From Patescibacteria group bacterium (lineage in GTDB: Bacteria > Patescibacteriota > Patescibacteriia > Magasanikbacterales > GWA2-37-8), in NCBI GenBank assembly GCA_004321885.1, contig SCQK01000007.1:96001-160000 (forward strand): a DNA stretch of 64,000 nt, in the 5' to 3' direction. Within the stretch, counting starts at the first letter, position 1. Every line of letters begins with the position of its first letter. This document shows positions 1 to 50,121 of this stretch, piece by piece. The notes beneath the pieces are model-generated. The model did no database searches. It was not told the origin of the DNA and saw only the letters and a list, made by a program, of their open reading frames with translations. A program made the position numbers and the translations under genes.

Positions 1-3000
1 AGGTGTCGCGGCCGCGGTAAATGTTGTCGCTTAAAACCTGGCCCGTGTATTCATGGTCAAAATCCACCCACTTTTTACAGTTGGTAATGTCGCCTTCCGC
101 GGCTTTTTCCGGGGCCTGGGCGCACCGGCCAATGCCGTCGCAGACTTCTTTGAACTTGCTTTCTTTTTCGCTCCACACGCGGTGCGATGACTTGCATTGC
201 AGCCACTCGCCGCACTCGCGGTCGCGCACCACTTTGAGCACGGTGTTGGCGTTGTTTACCCCGCCTTTCTTGGAAACATCTATGGGTTGAACCAGCGCGT
301 AATTTTTGGCCGCGCTGTCGGCATAGGTGGCGGCCGTGTCATAGAGCTTGTTTGGCCAGTCGGTTTTGTCAAATAAAACACAGCCGGCTTTTTCGCTCAC
401 TTGTCCAACGCATTCTTTAGCCGCGGATTTTAATTTTTCATCGTTGATGATGTAATAGGCCTTGTCGCTGTCGTTGTGGTCCACATACTCGGTGCAGCCG
501 CTTTGCTGAGCCGGACATTCGCCCACGAAATTTTTGTACCGGCCTTTGTCGCCGTAAGACCACAGGTCATAAAGATTCCCGGCTTTCAAATAATCCGGAT
601 AGCAGGGCGACAAATCCTTGTCAACGCATTTCGGGGTCGGGTCGGTCGGAGTTAGTGTGATGCCTTTGGCGCAATCGCTGTCGCTGACGCAATATTTTTC
701 CAGATTGGTCTTGCTGTTCCCGTCGCACTGGCCCACACCTTTCCAAAACCAGCCGCTCGCTTTATTGCCAGCTCCCCCGGGCAAGGTTACATCAGCGCGA
801 TAAGAACAAATTTTCTGCCCAATAACAACCGGGTCTTTGAAATAGACCGTGCCGTCCGGAGAATTATATTCGTCACAACCCTCGGCCTCGCTTTGGCAAA
901 GATTTTTGTCATAGCCATCGGGGTCGTTTTTTACAAGAACCGTTTCGTAAGCATCGCCAGACGGAGTGGATTTTTTCTTACCGGCGTAAGTACAGCCGAC
1001 GTCAATCTCGTTGCAGTGGGCTGATTTGTCCGCCACCAAATATATGGGCTTGTCGGCCCGGGTGTCGGGGGGAATGAAAACCGTGGAAGCGGTGACTGTT
1101 CCGCCCGCGGTTTTGATGTCAGCTAATTCATATCCAAACACATTGACATAACAGCCCTTTTCTCCGACTGGAACCTGACAGGAAAATTCCTGGCTGGCCT
1201 GGATTCCTGCTTGCGCAGGAATGACAATTTTTACCTTTGTCCCCTCGGCTCCGGACAGCCACACATTGTACGCGCGCGGGCCCGAGTCCTCGGGCGTGTT
1301 GTATGTGTCGTACAGCGCAGTACAGCCAATGGCGTTTTCGCGGCACAAATTGCTAAAGCCCGTGAGATAAAACGGCGTATTGCGGGAATTGGCGTAAGCT
1401 GAACAGCCCAGGGCTTCGCCCGGCAGATTATCCGTGGGGTCGCTGTCGCAAATCTGGTCAACCTTGAGGGTTTTTTTGACCAGATAAATATAGTCGGTAA
1501 CTTCTTTCAAAGAAATGTTGTCTAAAAATACGCTGCCGACGTTGGCAAAGGAAAAAGTAAGGCTGGCCGCGTCTGTCTCGTTGACTTCCACTGGGCCGAG
1601 ATGATAATAGCGCCAGACATCGCTGACGCTCACCGCGCCCAGCGCGAATGAGGCAGTCTTGCCCAAAGCAACCGCAAGAGTAAGCGCGCCCGAGGACTTG
1701 GCCCAGAAAGTCAAATCATAACTCTTGCCGGTTTTGAGCGCCACATCTTTTACCGCTGTGCCGGCTGTGCCGCCGCCTGAATTTAAGACAGAAAATCCCA
1801 ATGAGTGCCCGCCCGGCCTGGTTGACTCGGCAGAAATGGCAATGGAACTGTTGCCCCCCGCCCAGCCAGTCAGGGCCGCGGCCTGAACTCCGGCTTCAAA
1901 TTCTTCGTAAAACACATTGCGCGTATTGTTGCCGGCATTGCCCTTGTACTCGCGGCAGGAGTTGTGCTGGGCCTGGCACGATAGGCTGATGCCGGCGGTG
2001 TTGTAGGCCGAGCCAGGCAGGCCATAGTAAAAGCAGGCGCCGTCTTTGTATTCGCCGTTTTGAAAACAATTAGCGCCATTGTAAAATTCCGGCTCGTTTA
2101 GGCGATACGGGGCGCAGGACTTGTCCACCGGAATGGTTTTGGCCAGCAGGCGGTAATAGACCGCGCCCTTGTCATCGTTGAATTGACGGCAGTCGGCGTC
2201 GGCCGTGCCGGCCTTGTAAAGCGCTTCGCTGCATTTCGCGTCATAACCAGTCAATTCGGCCTGGGTTTTGTACCAGTACTTTGGCGCCCCGGCCGCGACC
2301 GCATCTTCCACCAGGGTGTAGGTTTTTAATTGAAACCCGCCATAGGTGGAGCCTTCGTAGGTAAAGAAAACCTTGCCCTTGTCTTTTTCGGGCAAAACGC
2401 ACGGCCGCAAATAGGAAAAAAATTCCACCTGCTCGGTAAGACCGGCCGTGGTGGTGGACAGATTGGTAAAACTAGCGCACCCGGTCGCGGCCGACGGGCA
2501 CGAGGCGCCGGAGGCAGGAATAATATAAGCCAGGTCTTGGCCGGCCGAATAATTGCTGGGCATCTCGCGATAGCTGGCATAGCCCACGCACTTGGCATCG
2601 CACTGGTCGTTCCAGGTGATTTCGCCCTCGGTAATTGTAGCGGCCGTAAACTGGCCGGGCACGCGGTCGCCTAAATAGCTTTGCGGGCTATACCAGTCGC
2701 ACCCCACTTCGCTGGGCAAACACACCTGGGCATAGTTAACGCAATCTTTCTCCGGTTTGATGTTGGTCAAGTCAGCCACGGTTTCGGGCCAGTCTGTTGG
2801 CGGGGTGCCCGGGTTGGCATCGTAGCACTTCAAATAGTACGGCGCTTTTTTTAGAGACAATTTTTCAGTGGTACTAACGGTCTTGAAAATGGCACAGCCG
2901 GCTGAATTGGCCGAACAGCCCGAGGAGCCGGAGGATAAATTTTTATTGAAATAAATCGCGGAATTTTCGCCGATAGTTAGGTCGTCTGTGTTTTGCGCCA

Positions 3001-4849
3001 GCCAGGTGGACGAGGCGGCCGGGGTCTCTGCGCTTTTTTTCAGGCTATAAGCAGAACAGCCCACATTGTCTTTTTCACAATAGCCCGTGTCCAAGGTGCG
3101 CTGTAAATAGGCTGTTTGCGCGCCCGTGGTTTTGTTGGTAAAGGCCAGACAGGTGCGGTTTTGCGGCTTGCATTGGCCCGCGTCAAAACGCCAGACATTT
3201 TTCTCGCGCGAGCAATAGCCATAGGTGGCACAGTTGCCGTCTTTGTCATAGGCCACGCACGCAGACAAGTCCACGCATTCTTCCATTCTTTCGGGGCCGT
3301 CGGCCATCAGCAGATTGGGGCCGCTGGCCAGGGCGTTACAGCGCGAGGCCGGCGCTTTCAGCACCCAGTTCGGGTCTATCAAACGGCAAAAAGGCTTATT
3401 CACCGGGTCGTTGTCAATGACTCCGGAGCTGTTTTTATTGCAGTCATTAAACCCGTCCACCACTTGTTTTAATGTCCAAGGCTTGTCCGGATTGCTGTTT
3501 AAGGCCGCGATTTCAAAACCAAGCGGCAGGACGCGCGCCTTGCGCAGTTTTTTGATGTTGGAATAGCAGTAGGCCTGCTGATAACAGGCACGGTCCGTGT
3601 CTAAGGAATTATCCGGCGGAATCAGCTTCCAGTCGCCGTGCAGGCCCGGCCCGCCGGCTCCTCTTTGCAGGGCTTCGGCAATGGTGAGGGGCTTGCCGCC
3701 GCTGGCCTCCTGGGCCGCGCCCACCAGGCCCTCGTCGGCCGCGCAATTGTTTTGCGCCGGAGATTCCGGACAGCTGGAGAGCTCGGCCAGGATGTTGTAG
3801 CGCTCTTGCACCGTGGTTTTGGGCGTGAGCAATTCGCTGTACATTGTCTCGGCTTGGCGGCGGTCGCTTTGCCCGCCCACCGCGATAAAGTTCTCCGCGC
3901 TTGGACCGGCGCCGCCACCGCCGCCCTCATCGTAGCCGATGCCAAACGGAAACATGCCCTTGGACAGAAAATTTTTCACCATTTCCCCGGCCAGGGTGTT
4001 TAAGAACATTGAGATGGTGGAAGGAATAATTTGGAAAGTGCCTGAACCAATGGCCTGGCCCGCCATTTGCTGGCTCATTTTTTGCTGTTCCGATGGGGTC
4101 AAATTTTCCATTGTTTTTTTGGTGGCCTGGGCCGGCGTTTTTATTGCTCCGGAAATTAAAGACTCCACTCCCTTCATACCCTGACCCTCCTGGCGCTTCA
4201 AAAGAGCTTCATTTTTTTCTTCCATTATTATATTATCTATTTTCGCCCTTGAATCCATGTAAAGGCCGAGGTCGGTTTCTTCCACTTTAAGCGAGGCGTT
4301 GAAAACCTGGTCAAAGTTGCCCTCGGCCAGACCGCCGTAGCGGCTTTTCCAGGCCTCGCCGCCCCAATTTTTGACAAAGGAATTGAAATCGCAGGCCGGT
4401 TTGGCCGGTTCGCCATATTGAAATTTCAGCCCGATGCGAAAAGCCAGGTCAATTTTTATGTCCGGAATTTTGCACAAATTCAAACCAAGGGGCTTGCCCA
4501 ATTCTTCTATGGCCTTGCCAAACGCGTTGCCCCCGACGTTTTTCATATAGCTTCCCCAGCCGTCTTTGAAAGCCAGGCCGCTTTGGCCCTTGCCCCCGGC
4601 GGCCAGATACACAGCCGTGTCATAAGCAATTTTGCGCATGAAATATGAGGTAGCTTGCATGGCCGCGCTCATCACAGCCACCTGGGTGCCCTTTATTATT
4701 TTATCTTTTATTTGTTTGGCCAAATCCGGAATGTCTTTGGTGATAATGGCGGGCCACGCGGCTTGGGCCGTGCGCGGAAACAAAAAAGAACCGGCGAGGG
4801 TGGTAGCCAGCAGAATTACTGCAAGTATTGTGGCGCTGATTTTTTTCAT
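1..4849 (-). CDS. Very large secreted Cys/Asp/Gly-rich protein (partial; continues beyond window start; >1616 aa)
   Basis: Minus-strand frame open from the ATG at 4847-4849 to the window edge; no stop-terminated ORF is listed in this frame and I checked by hand that codons at both ends are stop-free. N-terminus MKKISATILAVILLATTLAGSFLFPRTAQA/AWP is a signal peptide. Many Cys residues and no recognisable enzymatic motif. Confidence 0.6.
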   Translation of the reverse strand, partial: MKKISATILAVILLATTLAGSFLFPRTAQAAWPAIITKDIPDLAKQIKDKIIKGTQVAVMSAAMQATSYFMRKIAYDTAVYLAAGGKGQSGLAFKDGWGSYMKNVGGNAFGKAIEELGKPLGLNLCKIPDIKIDLAFRIGLKFQYGEPAKPACDFNSFVKNWGGEAWKSRYGGLAEGNFDQVFNASLKVEETDLGLYMDSRAKIDNIIMEEKNEALLKRQEGQGMKGVESLISGAIKTPAQATKKTMENLTPSEQQKMSQQMAGQAIGSGTFQIIPSTISMFLNTLAGEMVKNFLSKGMFPFGIGYDEGGGGGAGPSAENFIAVGGQSDRRQAETMYSELLTPKTTVQERYNILAELSSCPESPAQNNCAADEGLVGAAQEASGGKPLTIAEALQRGAGGPGLHGDWKLIPPDNSLDTDRACYQQAYCYSNIKKLRKARVLPLGFEIAALNSNPDKPWTLKQVVDGFNDCNKNSSGVIDNDPVNKPFCRLIDPNWVLKAPASRCNALASGPNLLMADGPERMEECVDLSACVAYDKDGNCATYGYCSREKNVWRFDAGQCKPQNRTCLAFTNKTTGAQTAYLQRTLDTGYCEKDNVGCSAYSLKKSAETPAASSTWLAQNTDDLTIGENSAIYFNKNLSSGSSGCSANSAGCAIFKTVSTTEKLSLKKAPYYLKCYDANPGTPPTDWPETVADLTNIKPEKDCVNYAQVCLPSEVGCDWYSPQSYLGDRVPGQFTAATITEGEITWNDQCDAKCVGYASYREMPSNYSAGQDLAYIIPASGASCPSAATGCASFTNLSTTTAGLTEQVEFFSYLRPCVLPEKDKGKVFFTYEGSTYGGFQLKTYTLVEDAVAAGAPKYWYKTQAELTGYDAKCSEALYKAGTADADCRQFNDDKGAVYYRLLAKTIPVDKSCAPYRLNEPEFYNGANCFQNGEYKDGACFYYGLPGSAYNTAGISLSCQAQHNSCREYKGNAGNNTRNVFYEEFEAGVQAAALTGWAGGNSSIAISAESTRPGGHSLGFSVLNSGGGTAGTAVKDVALKTGKSYDLTFWAKSSGALTLAVALGKTASFALGAVSVSDVWRYYHLGPVEVNETDAASLTFSFANVGSVFLDNISLKEVTDYIYLVKKTLKVDQICDSDPTDNLPGEALGCSAYANSRNTPFYLTGFSNLCRENAIGCTALYDTYNTPEDSGPRAYNVWLSGAEGTKVKIVIPAQAGIQASQEFSCQVPVGEKGCYVNVFGYELADIKTAGGTVTASTVFIPPDTRADKPIYLVADKSAHCNEIDVGCTYAGKKKSTPSGDAYETVLVKNDPDGYDKNLCQSEAEGCDEYNSPDGTVYFKDPVVIGQKICSYRADVTLPGGAGNKASGWFWKGVGQCDGNSKTNLEKYCVSDSDCAKGITLTPTDPTPKCVDKDLSPCYPDYLKAGNLYDLWSYGDKGRYKNFVGECPAQQSGCTEYVDHNDSDKAYYIINDEKLKSAAKECVGQVSEKAGCVLFDKTDWPNKLYDTAATYADSAAKNYALVQPIDVSKKGGVNNANTVLKVVRDRECGEWLQCKSSHRVWSEKESKFKEVCDGIGRCAQAPEKAAEGDITNCKKWVDFDHEYTGQVLSDNIYRGRDT

Positions 4850-4852
4850 ACA

Positions 4853-4937
4853 TTTGTCATTGCGAGGAGTGGAGCGACGAAGCAATCCCTTGCGTTATGT
4901 CTGGGATTGCTTCGGCCTTTCAGGCCTCGCAATGACA
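4853..4937. repeat. Family B MITE-like element (gtcattgcgagg...cctcgcaatgac, ~80 bp), intergenic copy
   Basis: Terminal inverted repeats gtcattgcgagg / cctcgcaatgac with an internal gggattgcttcg motif; further copies at 19833-19915, 20934-21008, 22239-22313, 36107-36197 and 59758-59838. Confidence 0.8.
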
Positions 4938-5561
4938 CTATTGTTTTAACATACTCGCCGCGGCGCTCGTGGTGGAATTCATTATTTCTTGCACTGTGGC
5001 GAGCAAGTCATTGTCGGAAATTTTATCCAATATGTCTTTGTCCATCCCGGCCGCTGTCAGCATTTCGCGCAATTGCTTGGGGTCGCTTAGGGCCTTGTTG
5101 ATATCAAGCAAAGCCGTGCTTGTGGCCGGCGGTTCGGCCCCCAAAGCCGCGGGCGCGGCCGGCAAGGCCTCGCCGGCGCTCATCAGAGAACAATCTTTGC
5201 CCTCGGCGCAATTTGGATTGGCGCCCTTGTCAATCTCTTGTTTGTCGCTGGCGCCGTCGGAATCGCTGTCGGCCAAATACGGGCTGGTTTGATAAATATA
5301 CAGCTCATCAAAATCGTTTAAGCCATCTTTGTCTGTGTCGCGAAAACGCAGGGTTTCTATGCTAATCGTGTCGTGCGCTTGAAAAGGAGGAATTTTGCTG
5401 TTTAAGGCAAACGGCGCCAGCATGGTATTGCGCAACTGCAAATAGCCAAGCCCCACGGCGAGAAGCGCAAAAATAGATAGCAGTAACAACCCTATCTTTT
5501 GGTGTCTGGATAAGTGTTTTTGAAAATCTACCGGCGATTGTTCGTCCGGCATAGTAATCAT
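4938..5561 (-). CDS. Membrane-anchored protein with calcium-binding (thrombospondin type 3-like DxDxDG) repeats
   Basis: N-terminal TM helix (IGLLLLSIFALLAVGLGYL) and motifs DTDKDGLNDFDE and DSDSDGASDKQE; a similar motif pair occurs in the L,D-transpeptidase at 16668-17306. Confidence 0.5.
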   Translation of the reverse strand: MITMPDEQSPVDFQKHLSRHQKIGLLLLSIFALLAVGLGYLQLRNTMLAPFALNSKIPPFQAHDTISIETLRFRDTDKDGLNDFDELYIYQTSPYLADSDSDGASDKQEIDKGANPNCAEGKDCSLMSAGEALPAAPAALGAEPPATSTALLDINKALSDPKQLREMLTAAGMDKDILDKISDNDLLATVQEIMNSTTSAAASMLKQ

Positions 5562-5564
5562 CTG

Positions 5565-5628
5565 TCATGCTGAACTTGTTTCAGCATCTCCACTGGGGAT
5601 CCTGAAACAAGTTCAGGATGACAATGGT
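5565..5628. repeat. Family F palindromic repeat (ggatcctgaaacaagttcaggatgac)
   Basis: Inverted repeat ctgaacttgtttcag flanked by gtcat/atgac; copies at 13718-13748 (inside a CDS), 43140-43175 and within 61545-61590. Confidence 0.7.
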
Positions 5629-5636: not shown

Positions 5637-6662
5637 TTATACCACAAAATTGTCTCGCAGTAATGTGGATAACTGTTTCCACTGCTCTACGGATAATTCT
5701 TGAGCGCGAATGTTTGGGCCAATACCCATTTCAGTAAAAATTTTTTCCAATTTTTCTTTAGCGCCCTCATTGTCATTCCCCCGACTAAGTACGGGGGAAT
5801 CCAGCAACGGCTGTAAATTCTTTATCAATAATTTGCGTTTTTGCGCGAATCCGGCTTTGACCACTTTGAAGAACCACTGTTCATTGTCATCATCGCTGTC
5901 ATCGCTGGCTCCATAGTCCCCCAAAGGGGGCTGTGGAGCCAGAGTGCCGGCCGACATCACGGCTCCATAATCCCGGTCGCCTGCGGCGACCGTGGAACTA
6001 TGGAGCCAGCGATGTTGCTCCATTCCTCGCAATGACAATTTTATCACCGCGCTGTCCACCTTGGGTTCGGGCCAAAAAAATGTTTTCGGCACTTTCATTA
6101 TTATTTCCGGCTCGGCGTAATATTGAACGGAAACAGCAAGCAAAGACATATCCCCCGGCCCAGCGCAAATTCTTTCGGCCACTTCTTTTTGCACCATGAG
6201 TACCATCACGGACGGACTGTCCGCTTCTCCCGCAACAGCGGGATCCCGCTCGCCGCGGGACAAAAATTTACGCAACACGTTGGAAGTGATTTGATACGGC
6301 AGATTGGCCACAACTTTGTATTCTTTATTCCCCATTCCTAATTCTCTATTTTTCAACACATTTCCCCACGCAATTTCCACGTTCTTATGTTTCTTCACTT
6401 GCTCTTCCCAATACGGCTGGAGTTTTTTTTCAATTTCATAGGCAATGACTTTGCCGGCGCGCTCGGCCAGCGCAAAGGTGAGCGCGCCAAAACCCGGGCC
6501 GATTTCAACCACCGTGTCTTTTTTGGAAATTTCCGCCGCCGCGAGCATCTTTTCTATTGGCTCTTCGCGCAACAAAAAATTCTGCCCGTATCGTTTGCTG
6601 GGAGTGAGGCGATACTTGGAGCAGAGATATTTTAAGTGTGAGGTAGCAAATAAGATGGACAT
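5637..6662 (-). CDS. rsmA: 16S rRNA (adenine1518/1519-N6)-dimethyltransferase RsmA/KsgA, carrying three in-frame repeat insertions
   Basis: GQNFL start motif, SAM-binding VVEIGPGFGALT, NLPYQITS and VLMVQKEVAERI motifs. The C-terminal half contains repeat-derived segments (family E about 5925-6035, family A 5771-5804). Confidence 0.85.
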   Translation of the reverse strand: MSILFATSHLKYLCSKYRLTPSKRYGQNFLLREEPIEKMLAAAEISKKDTVVEIGPGFGALTFALAERAGKVIAYEIEKKLQPYWEEQVKKHKNVEIAWGNVLKNRELGMGNKEYKVVANLPYQITSNVLRKFLSRGERDPAVAGEADSPSVMVLMVQKEVAERICAGPGDMSLLAVSVQYYAEPEIIMKVPKTFFWPEPKVDSAVIKLSLRGMEQHRWLHSSTVAAGDRDYGAVMSAGTLAPQPPLGDYGASDDSDDDNEQWFFKVVKAGFAQKRKLLIKNLQPLLDSPVLSRGNDNEGAKEKLEKIFTEMGIGPNIRAQELSVEQWKQLSTLLRDNFVV

Positions 6663-6752: not shown

Positions 6753-7376
6753 CTATCGCTTATCGCTTATCTTCACGCACCCTTGCCTGATAATTTTAAT
6801 TTTTTCAAACTTCACGCTTACTATCGTACTTGGTTTTCTGCGCGGCAGTTTGCCGGCGTCCAGCAAAAAATCCGGCGCGTATTTTTTGCCGGCGAACTTT
6901 TTTATGATATCGCTACTATTATATATATCCCCTTCTCCGCCTATATTGGCCGAGGTGGCGACGAGCGGCCGGCCGAGCGCGGCGCATAATTTTTTGGCCA
7001 ATGGATGCGACGTGACGCGCAGGGCGAGGGTGTTGTTTGATACGACACCGGCGGCCAGACGAAAAGGGATTCCTCGCCGCGCTCGGAATGACAATGAAGC
7101 GACAATCGTGAGCGGGTCGTGCCAATATTGTTTTGCCAATTTTCCAATCGTCTTGTTCCAAACTAAATATTCTTTCGCCATGGCGACAGAAGACGCGACA
7201 ACCAAAAGCGGTTTGCTCTTTGGCCGCTTTTTTATCTTAAAAATTTTATCCACTGCTTTTTGATTCGCCGCGTCGCAACCCAAACCATACGAGGTCTCGG
7301 TGGGGAAAACGACAATTTGACCACTCTTCAAGGCAATAAAAATTTTTTCTATCTCACTTTTTTTCAAGATTATCAT
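6753..7376 (-). CDS. tsaC: L-threonylcarbamoyladenylate synthase (TsaC/YrdC/Sua5 family)
   Basis: YrdC-fold motifs VFPTETSYGLGCDA and LLVATSANIGGEG; contains a short repeat-derived insert (gggattcctcgccgcgctcggaatgaca around 7060-7095). Confidence 0.8.
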   Translation of the reverse strand: MIILKKSEIEKIFIALKSGQIVVFPTETSYGLGCDAANQKAVDKIFKIKKRPKSKPLLVVASSVAMAKEYLVWNKTIGKLAKQYWHDPLTIVASLSFRARRGIPFRLAAGVVSNNTLALRVTSHPLAKKLCAALGRPLVATSANIGGEGDIYNSSDIIKKFAGKKYAPDFLLDAGKLPRRKPSTIVSVKFEKIKIIRQGCVKISDKR

Positions 7377-9395: not shown

Positions 9396-11066
<1,671 letters not shown>

Positions 11067-11366: not shown

Positions 11367-11432
11367 ATATTATTCTGTCATTCCCCCGACTAAGTCGGGG
11401 GAATCCAGTTATAATTAAAAAAAAGACGCATA

Positions 11433-15318: not shown

Positions 15319-16560
15319 TTATTCTTTAGTTTCTTCTACTGGCTCTTCTTTGCTTTCCCCAACCTTTTCCTCAATCGGTTCAGCCGCCGCTTCTTCGCTG
15401 GACATTTCCTGAGTGCCGCCCTTTTCTTTCACATTGATGCCCCAGCCCGTAAGCTGGGCCGCCAGGCGCACGTTTTGCCCGCCGCGGCCAATGGCCAAAG
15501 AAAACTGGTCCGGCGCGACATACGCCGAAGCCGTTTTGCTGGCTTCGTCCAATTCCACTTCCGCCACTTTGGCTGGAGACAGCGCGTTGGCAATATAGTT
15601 GACCGGACTTTCGCCATAACGGATGATATCTATTTTTTCTCCGCCCAGCTCTTCTATTATAGTATTGATGCGTCCACCGCGCTGGCCAATGCACGAACCG
15701 ATGGGGTCTATCTGCTCGTCGTTCGCGTCCACAGCCACCTTGGAACGGTAGCCGGGCTCGCGCGCGATGCCTTTTATTTCAATCAGTCCTTCTTTAAGCT
15801 CGGGAATTTCCTGCTTGAAAATTTCCCGCACCAAACCCGCGTCGGCGCGCGATAAAATTATCTCGGGTCCGCGCGGCCCCATCTGCACCGACTGCACCAA
15901 AAATTTCAGCTTGCTCCCGGAACGATAAAAATCGCGGCTGTTTTGCTGTTCCGCGGGCATAATGCCAGTAACTTTGCCCAAATCAACCAAAGTTTTTCTG
16001 CCTTCCACGCGCTGAATCGTGCCGACAATTACCTGACCTTCCTGACCCTTGAAGTCGTCAAACACCATACTGCGCTCGGCTTCGCGCACCTTTTGGATTA
16101 TCACCTGCTTGGCGGTCTGCGCGGCCATGCGTCCGAAATCGCCCCCAGCCTCCAGCTCAATTTCCAGCACCTCGCCGGCCCGGGCGCCTTTTTTGATTTT
16201 TTTCGCCTCCGAGAGCATCATTTCCAGCTTGGGATTAAAGCGCGGCAAATCAGCCACTTCTTCCTCGGTGAGCTCGCGGCCTTCCTCTTTGGCCTTTTCA
16301 CGCCGCTTGGTCAATTCTTCCTGGGCCGCGACCAGCGCCTCCTCGGCAGTATCTTCCACCACGATTTTCACGTCCCACGCTTTCATATCGCCGGTCTCGG
16401 GGTCAAATTTCACCTTGATGTTCTGTTGTTTGTTGCCAAAATCCTTGCGATAAGCCGCGGCCAGCGCCACTTCTATGGCCTCAAGCACCGCCTCGTAGGG
16501 CAGATTTTTTTCCTCGCACAAAAATTGTATGGCCTTGCTGATTTCCGACATAGTTGTCAT
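15319..16560 (-). CDS. nusA: Transcription termination/antitermination factor NusA
   Basis: N-terminal NusA domain, S1 domain and two KH domains (IGSCIGQRGGRI and IGRGGQNVRLAAQLTG). The start codon ATG lies inside the family A repeat at 16554-16589. Confidence 0.9.
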   Translation of the reverse strand: MTTMSEISKAIQFLCEEKNLPYEAVLEAIEVALAAAYRKDFGNKQQNIKVKFDPETGDMKAWDVKIVVEDTAEEALVAAQEELTKRREKAKEEGRELTEEEVADLPRFNPKLEMMLSEAKKIKKGARAGEVLEIELEAGGDFGRMAAQTAKQVIIQKVREAERSMVFDDFKGQEGQVIVGTIQRVEGRKTLVDLGKVTGIMPAEQQNSRDFYRSGSKLKFLVQSVQMGPRGPEIILSRADAGLVREIFKQEIPELKEGLIEIKGIAREPGYRSKVAVDANDEQIDPIGSCIGQRGGRINTIIEELGGEKIDIIRYGESPVNYIANALSPAKVAEVELDEASKTASAYVAPDQFSLAIGRGGQNVRLAAQLTGWGINVKEKGGTQEMSSEEAAAEPIEEKVGESKEEPVEETKE

Positions 16561-16667
16561 TCCCCCGACTTAGTCGGGGGAATCCAGTTATATTAAATTA
16601 AAGAGCCCTTCTTCCGAAGCGCTCTCTTAACAATCAAACCTTGGAATTAAGCATACACCTGTCTGAT

Positions 16668-20474: not shown

Positions 20475-23012
20475 TCACACAACTATACTCACCAACTTTC
20501 CTTTCACGTAAATCACTTTCTTGGGTTGTTTGCCTTCCAGCCATCTCTGAATTTTTTCGCTGGCGAGCGCGCGGCTCTTCGCCTCTTCTTCGGAGATTCC
20601 CGCCACCACTTCCAAAGTGTCGCGCAACTTGCCATTCACCTGCACGGCCAGAGTGATTTCTTTTTCTTTGGCCAGCTCGGGGTCGTACTTCGGCCACGGT
20701 TCAAATGTGATGGATTTTTTATGTCCCAATAGCGACCACAACTCTTCGCACATGTGCGGAGCGAAGGGCGAAAGAATTTTTACGAATAATTCAAAATTCG
20801 CGATGGAAATTTTTGCCTGCTTTGAAAATTCATTACTCAATTCCATCATTTTCGCTATGGCCGTATTAAATCTCATCGCTTCAATATCTTCGGTGACTTT
20901 TTTGATTGTTTGGTGAAGTAGCTGCGTCATGCTGTCATTGCGAGGAGCCGAAGGCGACGTGGCAATCCCTTTCTTTGTTTGGGATTGCTTCGCTTCGCTC
21001 GCAATGACATTGAGCCCCCACACCCTCTCCAAAAACCTACGCACCCCTATCAATCCATTCGTATCCCACTCCACGGCCTGGTCAAACGGCCCCATGAACA
21101 TTATATACGTGCGCAAAGAATCCGCGCCGAATTTTTCCACCATTTCGTCCGGGTTTACCACGTTGCCTTTTGATTTACTCATTTTTTCTCCGCCTTTGGC
21201 TAAAATCATGCCGTGGCTGGTGCGTTTTTTGTACGGCTCACGCGTGGGCACAGCGCCGATGTCAAACAAAAACTGATTCCAAAAACGGGAATACAACAAA
21301 TGTAGAACCGTGTGCTCCATGCCGCCATTATACCAATCCACGCCGCCTTCGCCCGGCTTCGCGGGCTTCGGCGGGCAAAGCCAATATTTTAGCTTTTCCA
21401 TTGAGGCCAATTTCTTATCGTTTTTCGGGTCGCAGTAGCGCAAAAAATACCAACTGCTTCCGGCCCAATTCGGCATGGTGTCTGTTTCGCGCCGAGCCGG
21501 GCCGCCACATTTCGGGCATTTTGTTTTCACCCATTTTTCCATCGCGGCCAAGGGCGATTCGCCTGTGTCGGTCGGCTCATATTTTTTCACTTTCGGCAAT
21601 TCCAAAGGCAAATCTTCTTCCGCCAGCGGAATCCATCCTGGATTCAATCGCTCACCATCGTTTGGAAATTGGAAATTGGAAATTGGAAATTCCGCTTGTT
21701 TTTCGCACGCGGGACAAAAAACAAGCGGGATGGGTTCGCCCCAATAGCGCTGTCGCGAAAACACCCAATCGCGGAGTTTGTATTGCACTTTTTTCTCGCC
21801 AATCTTTTTTTCTTCCAGCCACTTCATTATTTTTTCCATCGGCTCGGGCACGATTTCCTTTATCGGCAAATTAAATTTCTTGGCAAACTCACTGTCGCGC
21901 TCGTCGTGCGCGGGCACGGCCATAATGGCGCCGGTGCCATAACCGGCCAAAACATAATCCGCTACCCACACCGGAATTTCCTTACCCGTGGCCGGGTTAA
22001 TCGCTTTGATACCCTTCAATTCCACGCCTGTTTTCTCTTTTTGAAGCTCTGTCCTCTCTAAATCCGATTTTTTCTTAGCTGATTCAACATATTTTTTTAC
22101 TTCGTCTATATTTGGAAATTGGAAATTGGAAATTGGAAATTTGAGGAGCGAAGCGACGAGTTCATGTTCGGGCGCGACAACCATGTACGTGGCGCCGAAG
22201 AGAGTGTCGGGGCGAGTGGTGAAGACCTCAAGCACACTGTCATTGCGAGGAGCCGAAGGCGACGTGGCAATCCCTTTCTTTGTTTGGGATTGCTTCACTT
22301 CGTTCGCAATGACAAATTTAATCATCGCGCCTTCGCTTCTGCCAATCCAATTTTCCTGCTGGACTTTTGCGCGTTCAATATAATCCACCTCTTTCAAGCC
22401 CTCCAGTAATTTATCCGCGTACTTGGTAATCGCCAGCATCCATTGCTCCTTATTGCGCCGCTCCACCGGCGTACCACAGCGCTCGCACTTGCCGTCCACC
22501 ACTTCCTCGTTGGCTAAGCCGATTTTACACGACGGGCACCAGTTTATGGGCATGGCTTTTTTGTAAGCCAAACCGTGCTTGAAAAGCTGTAAAAAAATCC
22601 ACTGGGTCCATTTGTAATATTTCGGGTCCGTGGTATCCACCTGCCGCGACCAATCAAAACTTAAACCGAGCGATTTTAGCTGGCGCGTGAAATTGGAGAT
22701 GTTTTTTTTCGTCACCTCGGCCGGGGGTTTGCCGGTCTTGATAGCAAAATTTTCCGTCGGCAGGCCGAAAGCGTCAAATCCAATAGGATACAAAACATTG
22801 TAGCCCTCCATGCGGCGCTTGCGCGAAATAATATCCATGGCCGTGTAGGCGCGCGGATGTCCCACGTGCAAACCCTCGCCGCTCGGATACGGAAACTCAA
22901 TCAAAGAATAAAACTTCTTTTTTTTCTTATCTTCTTTAACCTCAAAAGTCCCGTTCTCTTCCCAAAACTTCTGCCACTTTTTTTCAATTTTTTTCGGGTC
23001 GTATTTTGGCAT
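20475..23012 (-). CDS. leuS: Leucyl-tRNA synthetase, with four in-frame repeat insertions
   Basis: HVGH (HIGH-type) motif near the N-terminus, KMSKS, and editing domain. Two family B insertions (both translated ...[20 protein letters not shown]...) and two GGAAATT microsatellite insertions (FPISNFQFP). Confidence 0.9.
20934..21008. repeat. Family B element inserted in frame in leuS
   Basis: gtcattgcgaggagccgaaggcgacgtggcaatccctttctttgtttgggattgcttcgcttcgctcgcaatgac; an identical copy at 22239-22313 lies also inside leuS. Confidence 0.85.
22114..22141. repeat. Family C GGAAATT heptamer microsatellite (4 copies) inside leuS
   Basis: ggaaatt x4; other arrays at 21663-21683, 36368-36398, 58432-58460, 60418-60452, 60885-60915 and intergenic 17300-17345. 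Confidence 0.85.
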
Positions 23013-23924: not shown

Positions 23925-24000
23925 ATTGCTAAGCGTGGTGTGCTGTCTGTCGCTTATCAGCGGCTGAAAGCCCCACACAACACTCCAACGAGGAGGAACA

Positions 24001-24057
24001 ATGAAAGTCGGCAACAGAGCAGGCCCGGCCCAGAGCCGAGCCAACAACACGCGCTGA
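24001..24057 (+). CDS. Putative 18-aa small ORF (MKVGNRAGPAQSRANNTR) with a strong Shine-Dalgarno
   Basis: gaggagg sits 5 nt upstream of the ATG; it lies between the promoter at 23896 and the terminator at 24152. Coding status is uncertain and the transcript may instead be an sRNA. Confidence 0.3.
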   Translation: MKVGNRAGPAQSRANNTR

Positions 24058-24151
24058 TCGCAGAAGCCAACCGCCTCTTCGGGGCAGGAGGTGAAAATGC
24101 ACTGGCCGTGACAAACACGGACGGCGTAGGCACTGTGACGGAGCAGGACCA

Positions 24152-24182
24152 GGGGGCGGTCTCGACGACGCCCCTTTTTTTA
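24152..24182 (+). terminator. Rho-independent terminator
   Basis: Stem ggggcg/cgcccc with a 10-nt loop (gtctcgacga), followed by seven T. Confidence 0.6.
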
Positions 24183-24190
24183 ATCTCAGC

Positions 24191-24316
24191 TAAATTAAAA
24201 CGGAGGGTATATATAATTTTTGTAGCGGCCATCGCACCCCCGCGGGGCAGCGGTCGCCGCAGGCGACCCTGTTTGGCCGCAAAAAAATTATATATACCCT
24301 CCGTTGTTTTAATTTA
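24191..24316. repeat. Long perfect AT-rich palindrome (about 33-bp arms) enclosing a conserved 57-nt GC-rich structured core, copy 1 (downstream of trxA)
   Basis: Arms taaattaaaacggagggtatatataatttttg / caaaaaaattatatataccctccgttgttttaattta; core gcggccatcgcacccccgcggggcagcggtcgccgcaggcgaccctgtttggccgc. The right arm overlaps the trxA stop codon. Confidence 0.8.
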
Positions 24317-24634
24317 CGCGTACTTCTCCAGCATCTCTTTCAACTTCTCTTTCTGCACCCCGCCCGTCAGCTGGTCCACTATCTGGCCGTCCTTGAAAAC
24401 CATAAACGAAGGGATACTCAACACACTATACTGCGCGGCCGTGTCGCCGTTCTCGTCCACATTCATCTTGCCGATTTTAATGTTCTTGCCCTCAAATTCC
24501 TTGGCCAATTCTTCCACTATCGGCCCCATCATCTGGCACGGCCCGCACCACGGCGCCCAAAAATCCACAAACACCGGCTGTTTGGATTGCAAAACCTCCT
24601 CGTTAAAATTTTTGTCGGTAAACACGTTGTCCAT
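24314..24634 (-). CDS. trxA: Thioredoxin
   Basis: 106 aa with the WCGPC active site (FWAPWCGPCQMMGP). Confidence 0.9.
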   Translation of the reverse strand: MDNVFTDKNFNEEVLQSKQPVFVDFWAPWCGPCQMMGPIVEELAKEFEGKNIKIGKMNVDENGDTAAQYSVLSIPSFMVFKDGQIVDQLTGGVQKEKLKEMLEKYA

Positions 24635-24698
24635 ATTTATTTTTTTCTGGATTCCCCCGTACTTAGTCGGGGGAATGACAGCTTGTGTTTAATTATTA

Positions 24699-24803
24699 GC
24701 AAAGTTTTGTGATTTTTTTCGCAGCGGCCATCGCACCCCCAAGGGGCAGTGGTCGCCGCAGGCGACCCTGTTTGGCCGCAAAAAAAAATTCACAAAACTT
24801 TGC
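24699..24803. repeat. Copy 2 of the conserved 57-nt core in a different perfect palindrome (about 22-bp arms), upstream of trxA
   Basis: Arms gcaaagttttgtgatttttttc / gaaaaaaaaattcacaaaactttgc; core gcagcggccatcgcacccccaaggggcagtggtcgccgcaggcgaccctgtttggccgc, in the same orientation as copy 1. Confidence 0.8.
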
Positions 24804-26826: not shown

Positions 26827-27240
26827 ACCCTCTCCTGTTAGGGGAGGGATAAAGGGATGGGGTATCCACTCAATATCCCTAAAATCTTACTCTCTTACAC
26901 TGAATTAGTCAAATACGGGAATATCGCTGGCTCCATAGTGCCCGACTTAGTCGGGGCTGTGGAGCCGTAATGCACTCTGGCTCCACGCACAGCATGGAGC
27001 CAGCGACATTTGACACGCGCCCGATTTTGTGATAAAGTGATTTCACAATTAAAATAATAATTCTGGATTCCCCCGACTTAGTCGGGGGAATGACAGATGA
27101 GATTTTTGAGGGAATTTTTTAAGAGGAAACTCGTATGGCTCGTGCGGCTGAAACTGCCAAAAATACGCTAACGAAAACACTTTCAAGCGCTATCCGTGTG
27201 TGGGTTCCCCCGTACTTAGTCGGGGGAATGACAAACGAAT
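26827..27240. repeat. Intergenic repeat hotspot with a family D hairpin, a family E element and two family A copies
   Basis: 26827-26862 (D), 26925-27010 (E: ggctccatagtgcccgacttagtcggggctgtggagcc...), 27063-27098 (A), 27203-27238 (A); a 500-bp spacer between infB and rny. Confidence 0.8.
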
Positions 27241-31540: not shown

Positions 31541-34264
31541 ATGCCAAAACTAAAACCCCAGCTACTCCTCATTGCTTTAGCAACTATTTTAATATCGTCT
31601 GGTTTTGTTTTTGCGGTAAAAAAAATTCTAACTGTATCTGCAGTCAATAAGACGGCTTCTCTTGCCGAATTTAGCCCTCTTATTCCAACTTCTTCAGCGC
31701 AAGCGGATATCCCCACGGAACAAATACAAAAACTCCAGATTAAGAATTTTAAGAATGGAGCGAAATCTATCGAGCAAGATATTAAAGTGTTAAAAAAACA
31801 ACTATCTGCGTTGGCGCGGCGGAAAGTGGCCATACCATCGTTTTCTCCCGAAGGTATTTCAAATAACTTAACTAAACTGAAAACGCTAATTAAACAAATT
31901 AAAGCCATGCAAAGTTGGGGGGAATTAAATGTGTTAAAGCGGGAGATGAGTGAGCCGATGCGCCAACTATCTATAGATAGCCATCAAGTAGAGGTTTTAG
32001 CGCGCTGGCCGGATGCCTTAAAGCTATTAAATCAGGAACTAAACCGGCTAGTTCGCGAGGTTAAGCGCGCCAAACCGATTATTGAACGGCTATTTAAGAA
32101 GGAAGCTGATTTAACTGATGCTTATCGTGAATTTGACGCGGATGTCAACAAGATAAAACTAACCTTGGCAGAAGCAAATACCAAGATATCGGCCGGCGAT
32201 TTAGAAGCCGCTTTTAGCATTATTGAAATTGATTTTTTTGATCAAATAGATAACGTGGAACAAAATTACCGCTCCATAATTATCATAAGCAATTTAGGCC
32301 GCTTTGCTTCCTATCTTAAACAAAACATTACCACAAGCCAAAACGAAATTAAGTCGTTGAAGAAAAAAGGCATTGATGCGAGCGAACTTCAGGATTTGTT
32401 AAGTCATATCAAGACCAACGGCAACGATGTTTTGGCATTGATAAAAGCCAAACCCATTGACGAGGATGCGATTCTTTCCGGAATTCAAGAGATGGACGAA
32501 TTAAAACAGGATTTTTCCGACAAAGTAAGCGAAGTTACCGATGGAGAAGAGATGTCGTGGGGTAAAGATGGCAGTTTTTTTTCTAAAACAGAACTATCTT
32601 CAAAGGCTGTAGAAGCAATAAGTTGGCTACAGAAACAAGTTAACTGGACCGCCTCTGTTCCTGTAACGAGCATGGATGTTCCATCAAGTGAAACAACATT
32701 GACCGCGCCTCAGTCTGGTAATCAATCAACCTCAACACCTTCAAGCGCCACACCGGCAACACCAGCCACTCCAGCGGTCTCTTCTTCTGTCAGCGCCGCC
32801 CCGGCTTCACCGGCGGTTCCAGCCACGCCCGCACAACCAGCATTAACCGCAGACACGACGGTTCCTTCCACGCCCACAAATCTAACCGCTAATTCTTCCA
32901 GTTCTGTTCAAATTAATCTGGCTTGGACCGCTTCAACAGATAATGTTGGTGTGACTGGTTATCGCATCTATCGCGGAGGCGTCCAAATGGGCACTTCAAA
33001 TACCACTAATTATTCCGATACAGGACTTTCTTCGTTAACTACTTATTCTTATACTGTGGCGGCTTATGATGCGGCTGGTAATGTTTCTCCTCAATCAACT
33101 TCGGCAAGCGCCACAACACAGGCATTAGACACAACTCCGCCTGTCATCTCCTCGGTTTCAGTATCTCTTACCTCCGATTCTGCCACCATTACTTGGACAA
33201 CCAATGAATCTTCTGATTCACAAGCGAGTTATGGGTTGACATCCTCATATGGCAATACAACTCCATTGAACTCTTCTCCGGTTGTTTGGCATTCTGTTTC
33301 GCTTTCAAATTTAACTGGTGGCACAACTTTTCATTACAAAGTAATCTCCACAGATGGTTCAGGGAATAAAACCGAAAGCGGAGATGCAACTTTTACAACA
33401 ACATCTTCTGTCTTGCCAGCACCGAGTTTTCTTACGAAATGGGGTTCTCGGGGTTCTGATAATGGACAGTTTAATTCTCCTTTCGGTATCGCCGTAGATG
33501 CCAGTGGCAATGTTTATGTGGTGGACAGCCACAATCACCGTATTCAGAAATTCACCAGCAATGGCGTGTTTACCACCAAGTGGGGCTCTTCGGGTTCTGG
33601 CGACGGGCAGTTTTCTTACCCTTTCAGCATCGCCGTAAATGCCAGTGGTAATATTTATGTGACGGATGACAATAAGCATATTCAAAAATTTACCAACGAC
33701 GGCACCTTTATCCTCAAATGGGGCTCTTATGGTTCTGGTAATGAGCAGTTTTCTAGTCCTGAGGCTATCGCCGTAGATGCCGGTGGCAATGTTTATGTGG
33801 TGGACAGACCTAATAACCGCGTCCAAAAATTTACTGGGGATGGCACATTTATTACTAAGTGGGGCTCTTCGGGTTCTGGCGACGGGCAGTTTCAAGATCC
33901 TCGTGGTATCGCCATAGATGGTAGTGGCAATGTTTATGTGGTGGATTCCTCCAATAGCCGTGTCCAAAAATTTACTAGCGATGGCGCTTTTATCACTAAG
34001 TGGGGCTCTTCGGGTTCTGGCGATGGACAGTTTTTTACTCCTTTCAATATCGCCGTAGATGCCAGTGGCAATGTTTATGTGGCGGACGGCTACAATAATC
34101 GTGTTCAAAAATTTACCAGCAATGGCGTGTTTATCACCAAGTGGGGCTCTTCGGGTTCTGGCGATGGACAGTTTTCCCTTCCTCGTGGTATCGCCATAGA
34201 TGGTAGTGGCAATGCCTACGTGACGGAAGCCGACAACAGCCGCGTCCAAAAATTCGCTCCGTAA
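31541..34264 (+). CDS. Large secreted protein: coiled-coil region, Ser/Thr/Pro linker, two fibronectin type III domains and a six-bladed NHL-repeat beta-propeller
   Basis: Signal/TM N-terminus; FN3-like segments (LTANSSSSVQINLAWTAS...YSYTVAAYD); six NHL repeats of the form GxGxGQFxxPxGIAVDxSGNVYVxDxxNxRVQKF. Confidence 0.75.
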   Translation: MPKLKPQLLLIALATILISSGFVFAVKKILTVSAVNKTASLAEFSPLIPTSSAQADIPTEQIQKLQIKNFKNGAKSIEQDIKVLKKQLSALARRKVAIPSFSPEGISNNLTKLKTLIKQIKAMQSWGELNVLKREMSEPMRQLSIDSHQVEVLARWPDALKLLNQELNRLVREVKRAKPIIERLFKKEADLTDAYREFDADVNKIKLTLAEANTKISAGDLEAAFSIIEIDFFDQIDNVEQNYRSIIIISNLGRFASYLKQNITTSQNEIKSLKKKGIDASELQDLLSHIKTNGNDVLALIKAKPIDEDAILSGIQEMDELKQDFSDKVSEVTDGEEMSWGKDGSFFSKTELSSKAVEAISWLQKQVNWTASVPVTSMDVPSSETTLTAPQSGNQSTSTPSSATPATPATPAVSSSVSAAPASPAVPATPAQPALTADTTVPSTPTNLTANSSSSVQINLAWTASTDNVGVTGYRIYRGGVQMGTSNTTNYSDTGLSSLTTYSYTVAAYDAAGNVSPQSTSASATTQALDTTPPVISSVSVSLTSDSATITWTTNESSDSQASYGLTSSYGNTTPLNSSPVVWHSVSLSNLTGGTTFHYKVISTDGSGNKTESGDATFTTTSSVLPAPSFLTKWGSRGSDNGQFNSPFGIAVDASGNVYVVDSHNHRIQKFTSNGVFTTKWGSSGSGDGQFSYPFSIAVNASGNIYVTDDNKHIQKFTNDGTFILKWGSYGSGNEQFSSPEAIAVDAGGNVYVVDRPNNRVQKFTGDGTFITKWGSSGSGDGQFQDPRGIAIDGSGNVYVVDSSNSRVQKFTSDGAFITKWGSSGSGDGQFFTPFNIAVDASGNVYVADGYNNRVQKFTSNGVFITKWGSSGSGDGQFSLPRGIAIDGSGNAYVTEADNSRVQKFAP

Positions 34265-35255: not shown

Positions 35256-35441
35256 GTCAGGGTAGCTCAGTTGGTAAGAGCACAGGATTCACCCTCCCAC
35301 CAAAATGGCTGGGTAGCTCAGTTGGTAAGAGCACGGGATTCATAACCCCGAGGTCGGCAGTTCGATTCTGCCCCCAGTCACGATTGTTTGGTGGGAGGGT
35401 GAATAACCCTGAGGTCGAGGGTTCGACTCCCTCCCCTGACA
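35256..35441 (+). tRNA. tRNA(CAU)-like gene interrupted in the anticodon loop by a 112-bp insertion (candidate intron or pseudogene)
   Basis: Perfect acceptor gtcaggg/ccctgac, D arm gctc-agttggtaa-gagc, T arm gaggg-ttcgact-ccctc. The anticodon stem cagga/ccctg is split by caccctcccacc...ggtgggagggtg (a 14-bp helix) that encloses the tRNA at 35307-35380. Removing 35292-35403 yields the loop ttCATaa. Confidence 0.5.
35307..35380 (+). tRNA. tRNA-Met/Ile2 (anticodon CAU), elongator type; CCA not encoded; nested inside the interrupted tRNA
   Basis: Acceptor ggctggg/cccagtc (G-U at 2:71), D arm gctc-agttggtaa-gagc, anticodon stem cggga/ccccg with loop ttCATaa, variable loop aggtc, T arm ggcag-ttcgatt-ctgcc. 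G1-C72 argues against an initiator. Confidence 0.8.
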
Positions 35442-36529: not shown

Positions 36530-36551
36530 TCGGGGGAATGACAAACTTGCG

Positions 36552-48393: not shown

Positions 48394-48436
48394 TTTCCCT
48401 CCCCTTTATAAGGGGAGGGATAGGGAGGGGTAAATT

Positions 48437-48943: not shown

Positions 48944-49045
48944 TAAGAGGAGAGCGAGAGAGGGGTATCGCGGTTTCCCCTCCCCTTTTTAAGGGGAGGG
49001 TGAGGGATGAGTAATCGTCAATTCCCCCGCCCCTTTATAAGGGGC
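48935..49045. repeat. Three tandem family D GGGGAGGG hairpins
   Basis: cctctccccttgataagaggagag, cccctcccctttttaaggggaggg and cccccgcccctttataaggggcgggcggggg variants. Confidence 0.8.
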
Positions 49046-49074
49046 GGGCGGGGGTGGGGTAAACAATCGCCAGT

Positions 49075-49509: not shown

Positions 49510-49554
49510 TAAGGGGAGAGCGAGAGAGGGGTAAACACTCTTACTCACACTAAA

Positions 49555-49833: not shown

Positions 49834-50121
49834 TTCTTTTCCGATCTCGGGAACATCTTTTACATAGATTGTCCCTTCTACGTATTCGCGCGGTGGTTGA
49901 TGTTCTGGTATATTAGTATTGAATTAATTTTATATAAAGTTGACCCTCATAACTAACCGCGTAGACTGATATTATACAGGCCTCATGTTTTACGGTCAAT
50001 TGGAGTTCTGCAAGACAATCTTACTCCACCCCACCTCGCCTCCCCCTTGGAGAGGAAACAACGATTACCCCTCCCCAACCCTCCCCTTATAAATGACGAT
50101 TACCCCTCTCTAACTCTCCCC

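Follow-up and report, generated by a model that had tools for sequence, protein, structure and literature searches.

Palindromic repeats, probably tolerated as in-frame loops, in the rsmA gene of a Patescibacteria group bacterium

The rsmA (ksgA) gene of an uncultured, groundwater-type Patescibacteria group bacterium very probably is a functional gene into which non-autonomous palindromic repeats have inserted as tolerated loops. It occupies positions 5637-6662, on the minus strand, of the 64,000-nucleotide (nt) stretch that we analyzed (the window; positions 96,001 to 160,000 of contig SCQK01000007.1, assembly GCA_004321885.1). Within this one joint judgment, we hold it very likely both that repeats colonized the gene at least three times and that it is a working KsgA/RsmA gene, as judged by its ratio of nonsynonymous to synonymous substitution rates (dN/dS), its retained motifs, and its confidently predicted core. 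In-frame insertion of CGTC-tagged repetitive extragenic palindromic sequences (REPs) or Rickettsia palindromic elements (RPEs) is an already described phenomenon (PMC3733652), a point that the first-pass annotation of this DNA, made by a model from the sequence, did not make; the novelty lies in the host lineage, in how densely essential genes carry the repeats, and in several families being nested within a single linker.

Results

The first-pass annotation proposed that repeats in the C-terminal half of rsmA leave an intact open reading frame (ORF), and this was borne out. The ORF encodes 341 amino acids (aa) of a predicted 16S rRNA A1518/A1519 dimethyltransferase, identical to NCBI TAN33552.1 ([quoted passage not shown], from a metagenome-assembled genome (MAG) contig of 214,539 nt), and Pfam RrnaAD (PF00398) matches it at E=3e-48 in a single stretch limited to residues 23-213 (positions 6-192 of the 263 in the profile). 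The nearest relatives are Magasanikbacteria-like and mostly about 270-290 aa long (orthologs overall, about 275-290 aa), and the window RsmA is therefore about 60 residues over-long. Its translation retains the S-adenosylmethionine-binding GxGxG-type motif VVEIGPGFGALT and NLPYQIT, both invariant across 120 orthologs. Against the closest ortholog (P0002, 291 aa, encoded on Logan contig L001, which has the same tsaC-rsmA order and 79% DNA identity in rsmA), the dN/dS of the core is 0.14 over 239 codons at a dS of about 1.1, and by this measure the gene is under purifying selection.

An AlphaFold2 (AF2) model built on the 120 orthologs has a mean predicted local distance difference test (pLDDT) score of 86.3 and a predicted template modeling score (pTM) of 0.84, with core values above 90, and a Foldseek comparison with KsgA structures (including 6IFT, 3FUT, and 7V2P) gave template modeling scores (TM-scores) of about 0.77-0.88, target-normalized. 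The predicted fold has two domains, a Rossmann N-terminal domain and a helical C-terminal domain with conserved basic residues. In Escherichia coli KsgA, the residues RRK221-223, N227, and R248 contact 16S rRNA helices 24 and 27 (h24 and h27) (PMC8216452). Through the Bacillus subtilis KsgA alignment we equate KRK275-277, N282, and R319 of the window RsmA with these residues, as their putative counterparts, and all 120 aligned sequences share R276, K277, N282, and R319. All four helices of the C-terminal domain are native and can be aligned with B. subtilis KsgA when the inserts are left out, so the description of the C-terminal half as a mosaic of repeats was overstated.

Short-word BLAST of the gene against the whole window located the repeat pieces, and the pieces of families A, E, and B that had been reported for rsmA lie where they were described. 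Alignment with B. subtilis KsgA (6IFS) places gaps at three sites. About 60 residues had been ascribed to repeats; their repeat origin stands, NEGA, which had been counted as element-encoded, is native, and the family E and family B pieces are better read as one 141-nt composite. The list of reported inserts was correct as far as it went, and a further insert, a 30-nt hairpin at 6232-6261, had been overlooked.

The family A insert is a TGTC-tagged REP at 5771-5804 (plus strand), a 34-nt palindrome TGTCATTCCCCCGACTAAGTACGGGGGAATCCAG with the layout TGTC-ATTCCCCCG-ACTAAGTA-CGGGGGAAT-CCAG and an RNA fold of -20.5 kcal/mol. The gene strand of this palindrome codes for L-DSPVLSRGND-(N), residues ~286-298, in the loop that joins the C-domain helices 279-287 and 301-312 of the model. 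Comparison with insert-free orthologs puts the insertion at about 33 nt, the DSPVLSRG loop is 8 residues longer than in B. subtilis KsgA, and pLDDT dips at residues 291-300.

The second insert occupies the linker between the Rossmann and C-terminal domains (residues ~209-256) and is a composite palindrome of 141 nt, or 47 codons, at 5897-6037 (minus strand). Its outer arms are TGTCATTGCGAG and GCGATGACA, and it contains two inner hairpins built on GGCTCCA/TGGAGCC. The gene-strand RNA of 5890-6045 folds at -92.6 kcal/mol (z = -9.6), and because the pairing of TGTCATTGCGAG with GCGATGACA closes the whole structure, the family E element and the family B arm are best described as one composite. 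The family E element (5900-6014, 115 nt, no strand assigned) has perfect 18-nt terminal inverted repeats, CATCGCTGGCTCCATAGT and ACTATGGAGCCAGCGATG; the family B arm (6017-6038, minus strand; TTGTCATTGCGAGGAATGGAGC) is the tagged end of a TGTC REP and is identical to 4854-4875 in 21 of 22 nt. Relative to the L001 ortholog the linker carries a 123-nt (41-aa) insertion, and residues 213-256 (44 residues) have no counterpart in B. subtilis KsgA. In the model the insert lies between the last Rossmann strand (204-211) and the first C-domain helix (256-271), and residues 222-254 have pLDDT values below 50.

Relatives of the family E element are found in intergenic elements at 26923-27006 and 56621-56722, and the sequence GGTCGCCTGCGGCGACC within it occurs again at 24251, 24751, and 35494. 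A separate 107-nt element at 24199-24305 is bounded by long terminal inverted repeats (AACGGAGGGTATATATAATTTTT...), and a partial copy of 93% identity lies 500 nt away, at 24723-24786; the element contains GGTCGCCGCAGGCGACC, which is also present inside the rsmA linker insert. No Pfam family matches the 250-aa ORF that encloses it (23940-24692), and this ORF is unlikely to be a real gene.

The third insert lies in a degenerate TGTC-tagged double mini-hairpin at 6227-6262 (minus strand; TGTC-CCGCGGCGAGCGGGATCCCGCTGTTGCGG; fold, -27 kcal/mol, z = -3.3). Within it, 6232-6261 is a 30-nt insertion relative to L001 that encodes SRGERDPAVA, in the model's loop between the post-NLPY helix (123-134) and the strand 152-158. 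Here pLDDT dips at residues 131-150, the SRGERDPAVAGEA loop is 7 residues longer than in B. subtilis KsgA, and an insert of this type is unique to the window RsmA among the 120 orthologs. The three insert lengths (30 nt, 123 nt relative to L001, and about 33 nt) are all multiples of 3, and all are stop-free. Outside the gene, the 75-nt spacer directly downstream of the rsmA stop contains an inverted doublet of TGTC REPs at 5563-5623 (no strand assigned), which begins with TGTCATGCTGAAC and ends with GTTCAGGATGACA.

The proposal that identical inserted peptides in unrelated proteins mark element-derived coding DNA is supported, as the inserted DNA is identical to repeat copies elsewhere in the window, intergenic ones included. 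Copies of the family A 34-mer identical to one another stand at 5771, 24647, and 36510, and the copy at 58830 has 1 mismatch and that at 27200 has 2; these 5 matches compare with 0.00 expected from 100 dinucleotide shuffles. A 33-nt form of family A has four copies in the window, among them an intergenic one at 11032-11064 (plus strand); the other family A copies are at 11376-11408 and 16555-16587 (plus strand) and at 24647-24680, 27063-27095, 27200-27233, and 36510-36543 (minus strand). As the first-pass annotation had stated, DSPVLSRGND is also encoded by the family A copy in radA (RadA residues ~194-204). The peptide recurs, too, in two short reading frames, at 24647 and 36510, that are unlikely to be genes. 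The peptide or its translation from the other frame or strand, VIPPTKYGGI, is found in unrelated proteins, namely, the window RadA, ORFs on two groundwater contigs (L105 and L106), and an ORF of another Patescibacteria MAG (L024). A lack of recurrence, which the first-pass annotation had named as the result that would refute its proposal, was thus not what we observed.

Repeat segments stand opposite gaps in solved homologs or L001 in alignments of RsmA, RadA, leucyl-tRNA synthetase (LeuRS), TsaD, a ClpC-like protein, RecG, and TsaC, which makes at least seven alignment-confirmed repeat-bearing proteins among about 46 genes in 64 kb. Every repeat copy inside a well-supported window gene has a stop-free frame and keeps the reading frame. 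The radA gene (58254-59759, plus strand) carries its family A copy at 58830-58863 (minus strand), where M-DSPVLSRGND-S (MDSPVLSRGNDS) faces a 16-aa gap in Streptococcus pneumoniae RadA, and a second TGTC REP at 58746-58773 (minus strand; TGTC-ATTCCGGGC-TTGAC-CCGGAAT-CCCC), whose peptide GIPGQARNDN corresponds to a 6-aa gap against the same protein. In tsaC/sua5 (6753-7376), a TGTC REP at 7066-7093 (minus strand) encodes SLSFRARRGIPF, and TsaC is 7 aa longer there than its L001 ortholog. The ClpC-like gene has a TGTC REP at 53630-53656 (plus strand; TGTC-ATTCCCGC-GAAA-GCGGGAAT-CCAG), encoding CHSRESGNP at an 8-aa gap against a homolog. Alignment gaps further mark four repeat segments in LeuRS, two in RecG, and one of 27 aa in TsaD, and additional in-frame tagged copies lie in ComEC and in a large ORF at 1-4849.

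That large ORF occupies a region that had been considered as noncoding, a candidate that we rejected: it is one minus-strand ORF of at least 1616 aa that starts at 4849 and runs off the window. It has a signal-like N-terminal sequence and an in-frame TGTC REP at 1200-1226 (VIPAQAGIQ). The zinc-finger linker of radA contains a GGAAATT-type tandem repeat with a period of about 6-7 nt, and a short-period (about 6-7 nt) tandem repeat, TTGGAAATTGGAAATTGG..., is in frame in LeuRS, TsaD, RadA, and RecG at gaps against solved homologs; repeats of this type are at 21661-21692, 22111-22141, 36370-36401, 58427-58461, 60422-60453, and 60885-60919. The nominal 449-aa tsaD ORF includes a tRNA-Met (CAT) at 35307-35381 and, at 35260-35291, a 32-nt near-identical copy of the tRNA's own 5' half, and the real tsaD start must therefore lie downstream, near 35500. 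In nusA (15319-16560), the N-terminal domain has 158 residues against a Pfam profile of 119 positions, about 40 extra, and the family A copy at 16555-16587 overlaps the annotated start.

The L001 rsmA lacks the three window inserts, and its orthologous spacer lacks the doublet at 5563-5623. At the family A position L001 carries a different element, the hairpin GGCTCCACAGCCCCCTTCGGGGGACTATGGAGCC, which differs in 1 of 37 nt from the hairpin of the window linker (family E), so that nearly the same element stands at two sites of rsmA in two genomes. Either the repeats are conserved well beyond what neutral sites show, or they are much more recent than the divergence of the window and L001 lineages, and the differing element positions in related genomes are consistent with mobility. 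Inserts of at least 7 aa occur in 34 of the 120 RsmA orthologs, in the interdomain linker in 16 sequences, after residues ~87-89 in 8, after residue ~108 in 6, and in the 286-297 loop in 5; the peptides found at a given loop differ completely between orthologs. The DNA of three of these ortholog loci (L107-L109) has TGTC-tagged hairpins at the insert sites, and L107 has family A at the C terminus.

A scan of species-representative genomes for CATTCCCCCG-N6-9-CGGGGGAATCC returned at least 103 loci. The matches listed carry the labels, given by third-party annotation (TPA) assemblies, Calditrichia, Gammaproteobacteria, Nitrospirota, Dehalococcoidales, Endomicrobiales, Planctomycetes-Verrucomicrobia-Chlamydiae (PVC), Ignavibacterium, Bacteroidetes, and several Patescibacteria. 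Among these matches there are often many copies per genome, and in most genomes the copies lie outside long ORFs, with several loci inside; the long-ORF copies that we looked at are all in Patescibacteria. Only CC of the tail was specified in the search, and in more than 100 loci listed the unspecified flanks tGT and CCA(g/t) are nearly invariant, with cGT in some. By assembly label (L002-L104), the near-identical TGTC-ATTCCCCCG hairpins have lineage-specific loops: Calditrichia and CSMAG_2693 have AGTACT, one MAG labeled "Gammaproteobacteria" has AACGCTTT, and Patescibacteria have ACTAAGT(A). In the Patescibacteria MAG mentioned above, the ORF is RluD-like and holds a doublet encoding VIPPTKYGGIH...LDSPVLSRGND, the identity coming from motifs only, and a Kerfeldbacteria LeuRS (L090) contains ALDSPDRHRGNDNG. 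In metagenomes the exact family A 32-mer was found in the 2 Hainich groundwater contigs only (L105 and L106), a number too small to support frame statistics, one with a copy in a MiaA-like ORF and the other with a copy in a UvrD/PcrA-like ORF that has three REPs, both named from motifs only.

We scanned the window for hairpins that come directly after TGTC or CGTC and have a stem beginning with AT, and found 15 tagged hairpins under strict rules, against about 0.2 in Markov shuffles, and 21 under lenient rules; the tag was TGTC in all 21. They form several sequence subfamilies with one plan, TGTC, AT-stem, loop, stem-AT, and CC(A). The stem is ATTCCCCCG (9 bp) in family A and ATTCCCGC, ATTCCTGC, ATTCCGGGC, or ATCCTGAAC in others, and that of family B is longer and imperfect. 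Loops have 4-5 nt at 1200, 5563, 5596, 13717, 43143, 53630, and 58746, and those of family A have 7-8 nt, or, where ACT/AGT pair in the 33-nt form, 3 nt. Tails read CCAG, CCAT, CCCC, CCCA, or CCCT, with the single-C exceptions CTCC at 5563 and CTCT at 13717. Complete family B copies are inverted doublets of about 80 nt, at 4855-4937, 20933-21009, 22238-22314, 36112-36203, and 59761-59840, and these five sites together with 5563-5623 give six inverted doublets in the window with the tags outermost. A whole-window Rfam scan at gathering thresholds returned two tRNAs only, and the palindromes match no curated RNA family. Clean empty sites that would define a family A target sequence were looked for and none was found. 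The ORF between the family A copies at 11032 and 11376 was considered as a cargo gene and rejected, as the opposite strand reads as groES, by reading of the sequence only.

Two further kinds of repeat were seen in the window. A different palindrome family (CCCCTCCCCTTATAAAGGGGAGGG, with a TACCCC tail) is clustered at 48394-51400 between small peptidase and unannotated genes, occurs also at 9334, 17610, 18934, 26821, 40093, and 54034, and overlaps comEC at its 3' end and a phosphoglucomutase-like gene in its 5' part. The 141-nt tandem repeats at 33391-34233 are NHL beta-propeller blades of a 907-aa surface-type protein (31541-34264), ordinary protein repeats that are unrelated to the palindromes.

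We also looked for an enzyme that could move these elements. A phmmer search with two Y1 transposase queries, run on 2315 ORFs drawn from the window plus 108 loci, gave one match, at 4584-5138 of L063 (Pfam Y1_Tnp, E=7e-8). This is the only Y1 transposase in the 779 kb of related loci, and we rejected it as the mobilizer of TGTC REPs, as it is flanked by its own, unrelated palindrome. The L063 locus itself ("bacterium SM23_31", 4540-5200), a transposase resembling REP-associated tyrosine transposases (RAYTs) between inverted copies of GGTGGCACACCCAAACTTGTTTGGGGGTGT, is a classic REPtron arrangement.

Discussion

Several other explanations of the rsmA inserts were weighed, and we regard each as improbable, though not equally so. 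The inserts might be selected protein modules, for example, a lineage-specific adaptation of RsmA to the group's unusual ribosome or its assembly, which we consider unlikely. Such modules could explain why inserts recur at a small number of loops in 34 of the 120 orthologs, the interdomain linker foremost, and why one site adjoins the rRNA-binding helix, but recurrence at the same loops is expected from a selection filter alone. Moreover, the peptides at a given loop are wholly different between orthologs, their DNA is identical to that of intergenic copies and of copies in unrelated proteins, and the inserts are modeled as low-confidence coil.

It is very unlikely that rsmA is a decaying, repeat-riddled pseudogene whose long ORF is accidental. 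A gene of 1 kb with three or four separate inserts, matched by Pfam in one stretch over only its N-terminal two thirds, might suggest decay, yet insert lengths in multiples of 3 and free of stops, and a dN/dS of 0.14 at a dS of about 1.1, would hardly be expected of a pseudogene. In addition, the invariant catalytic and RNA-binding residues are retained, the C-terminal domain aligns to B. subtilis KsgA without the inserts, the AF2 core is confident, and many essential genes show a like pattern.

We find it hard to credit that the palindromes are removed after transcription or translation in the manner of introns or inteins. The very stable RNA structures of the linker (-92.6 kcal/mol, z = -9.6) and of family A (-20.5 kcal/mol) are the observations that would favor removal, but nothing beyond two tRNAs matched Rfam in the window, the elements are far below the size of any self-splicing intron or intein and lack their motifs, and stop-free frames and lengths in multiples of 3 would be needless in sequences that are excised. 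In Rickettsia, moreover, Ogata et al. (2000) are reported to have found such inserts retained in the mRNA, a precedent against removal. Finally, chimeric joins through repeats during metagenome assembly have next to no probability as the source of the inserts: the DNA is from a MAG and short identical repeats are a classic cause of misassembly, but rsmA is collinear and in frame on either side of each insert, the tsaC-rsmA order is that of L001, independent assemblies from other samples have like in-frame inserts, and a 34-nt repeat is shorter than a read.

We therefore favor the insertion of non-autonomous palindromic repeats into a functional rsmA, and several points weigh against this explanation. 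Only about 4-5 residues separate N282 from the start of the family A insert, which adjoins the helix that matches the h24/h27-contact helix of E. coli KsgA, and the insert may have a functional cost or effect. The family A loop has 7-8 nt, as opposed to the published 4-5 nt, and family E and the 30-nt insert are a poor fit to the tagged-REP plan. No transposase was found among 40 window ORFs scanned with Pfam, a result that agrees with the published statement that CGTC REPs have no dedicated transposase, and the mobilization step that we propose for the window REPs is conjecture. Identical copies could come from gene conversion instead of recent transposition. Lastly, it is from sequence that we infer the presence of the inserts in mRNA and protein and the activity of RsmA.

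We propose that copies would spread as hairpin-forming DNA by means of an enzyme supplied in trans and that selection would remove all insertions except those in tolerated, largely disordered, hydrophilic loops. The elements would then be transcribed and translated within the host protein, as reported for Rickettsia RPEs, and the inserted peptides would have no selected function.

A bolder reading, which we offer tentatively and consider doubtful, is that groundwater-lineage Patescibacteria are under active colonization by TGTC REPs, at a density in essential genes well above that reported for Rickettsia, which would imply a mobilizing system for the CGTC REP superfamily, possibly a horizontally spreading one. 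It is suggested by a hairpin that differs at a single one of 37 nt between two genomes with nearly saturated synonymous sites, and by the recurrence of the same 22 specified stem and flank bases in MAGs labeled as at least eight distant phyla. If active colonization is true, the small genomes of Patescibacteria would be a good place to seek the mobilizing system, and REPs would be a significant source of extra loops in the proteins of this group.

Our findings extend the in-frame REP/RPE phenomenon to the candidate phyla radiation (CPR), and indicate that core enzymes of translation, repair, and tRNA modification tolerate loops derived from repeats, even in genomes that are regarded as streamlined. 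A literature search, within the searchable library, found no paper that links CPR/Patescibacteria to REPs, RPEs, or MITEs (miniature transposable elements with inverted repeats), and a full-text literature search for the repeat-derived peptide strings gave no match. Length outliers and odd low-complexity peptides in this group (of the CHSERSEES, RGND, and VIPAx... types) should be read as repeat insertions and not as new domains, and homology searches, domain annotation, and structure prediction can be led astray by such repeat-derived segments.

Comparison with known repeat systems

GTAG REPs and REPINs, which are mobilized by RAYTs, resemble the window elements in being short GC-rich hairpins with an unpaired tetranucleotide tag, in forming inverted doublets, and in a presumed recognition of the hairpin as single-stranded DNA. 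GTAG REPs are almost always extragenic. The window elements differ in their TGTC tag, and neither the window nor 779 kb of related loci holds a RAYT gene flanked by window-type elements.

Family E, with its 115 nt, its perfect 18-nt inverted repeats, and its in-frame position, is similar to bacterial MITEs that contribute coding sequence, such as the Coxiella QMITEs (PMC5896051; reviewed in PMC10969869). MITEs have lengths of 70-300 nt and terminal inverted repeats of 15-30 nt. The interior of family E is different, a pair of hairpins of which one recurs alone in L001; neither a target-site duplication, on inspection of the family E flanks, nor a related insertion sequence was detected.

The RPEs of Rickettsia are likewise in-frame palindromes in apparently functional proteins that add short surface peptides, with the same peptide in unrelated proteins. 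The phylum and lifestyle are different, as is the nesting of several families in one linker in the window, and family E appears unrelated in sequence to elements of the long RPE-1 type (about 100-150 nt). In Rickettsia conorii, RPE-6 corresponds to CGTC-1 and RPE-4 to CGTC-4 (PMC3733652). The supplement of the same paper (PMC3733652) gives CHSRESGNP among the R. conorii CGTC-1 insert peptides and a CGTC-1 dimer at the annotated N terminus of the R. conorii dimethyladenosine transferase. The window peptide CHSRESGNP (53630-53656) is the same as that of RPE-6/CGTC-1, compared as listed peptides and not as DNA.

The CGTC-tagged REP superfamily has been described from Proteobacteria, Chlorobi, Bacteroidetes, Spirochaetes, and Thermotogae (PMC3733652; Di Nocera, De Gregorio, and Rocco, 2013, BMC Genomics 14:522). 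Its members have the tag CGTC, often TGTC, stems of 8-9 bp that start with AT, loops of 4-5 nt with exceptions, and a CCA tail; they are mostly inverted dimers near gene 3' ends, with no dedicated transposase and many subfamilies per genome, and intragenic in-frame copies are found in repair genes, aminoacyl-tRNA synthetases, and pseudouridine synthases (PMC3733652). The window differs in its host, a member of the Patescibacteria (CPR), in a much higher density inside essential genes, and in the longer, imperfect stem of family B. It shares the unpaired tag, the AT stems, the CC(A) tail, the inverted dimers, the many subfamilies in a single genome, the placement beside gene 3' ends, the in-frame genic copies, and the lack of an associated transposase, and VIPAQAGIQ, DSPVLSRGND, and CHSRESGNP match peptide types in the supplement of that paper (VIPAxAGI, SFPR...). 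By these sequence features, family A, the family B arm, and most of the other short palindromes in the window fit the CGTC/TGTC-tagged REP superfamily.

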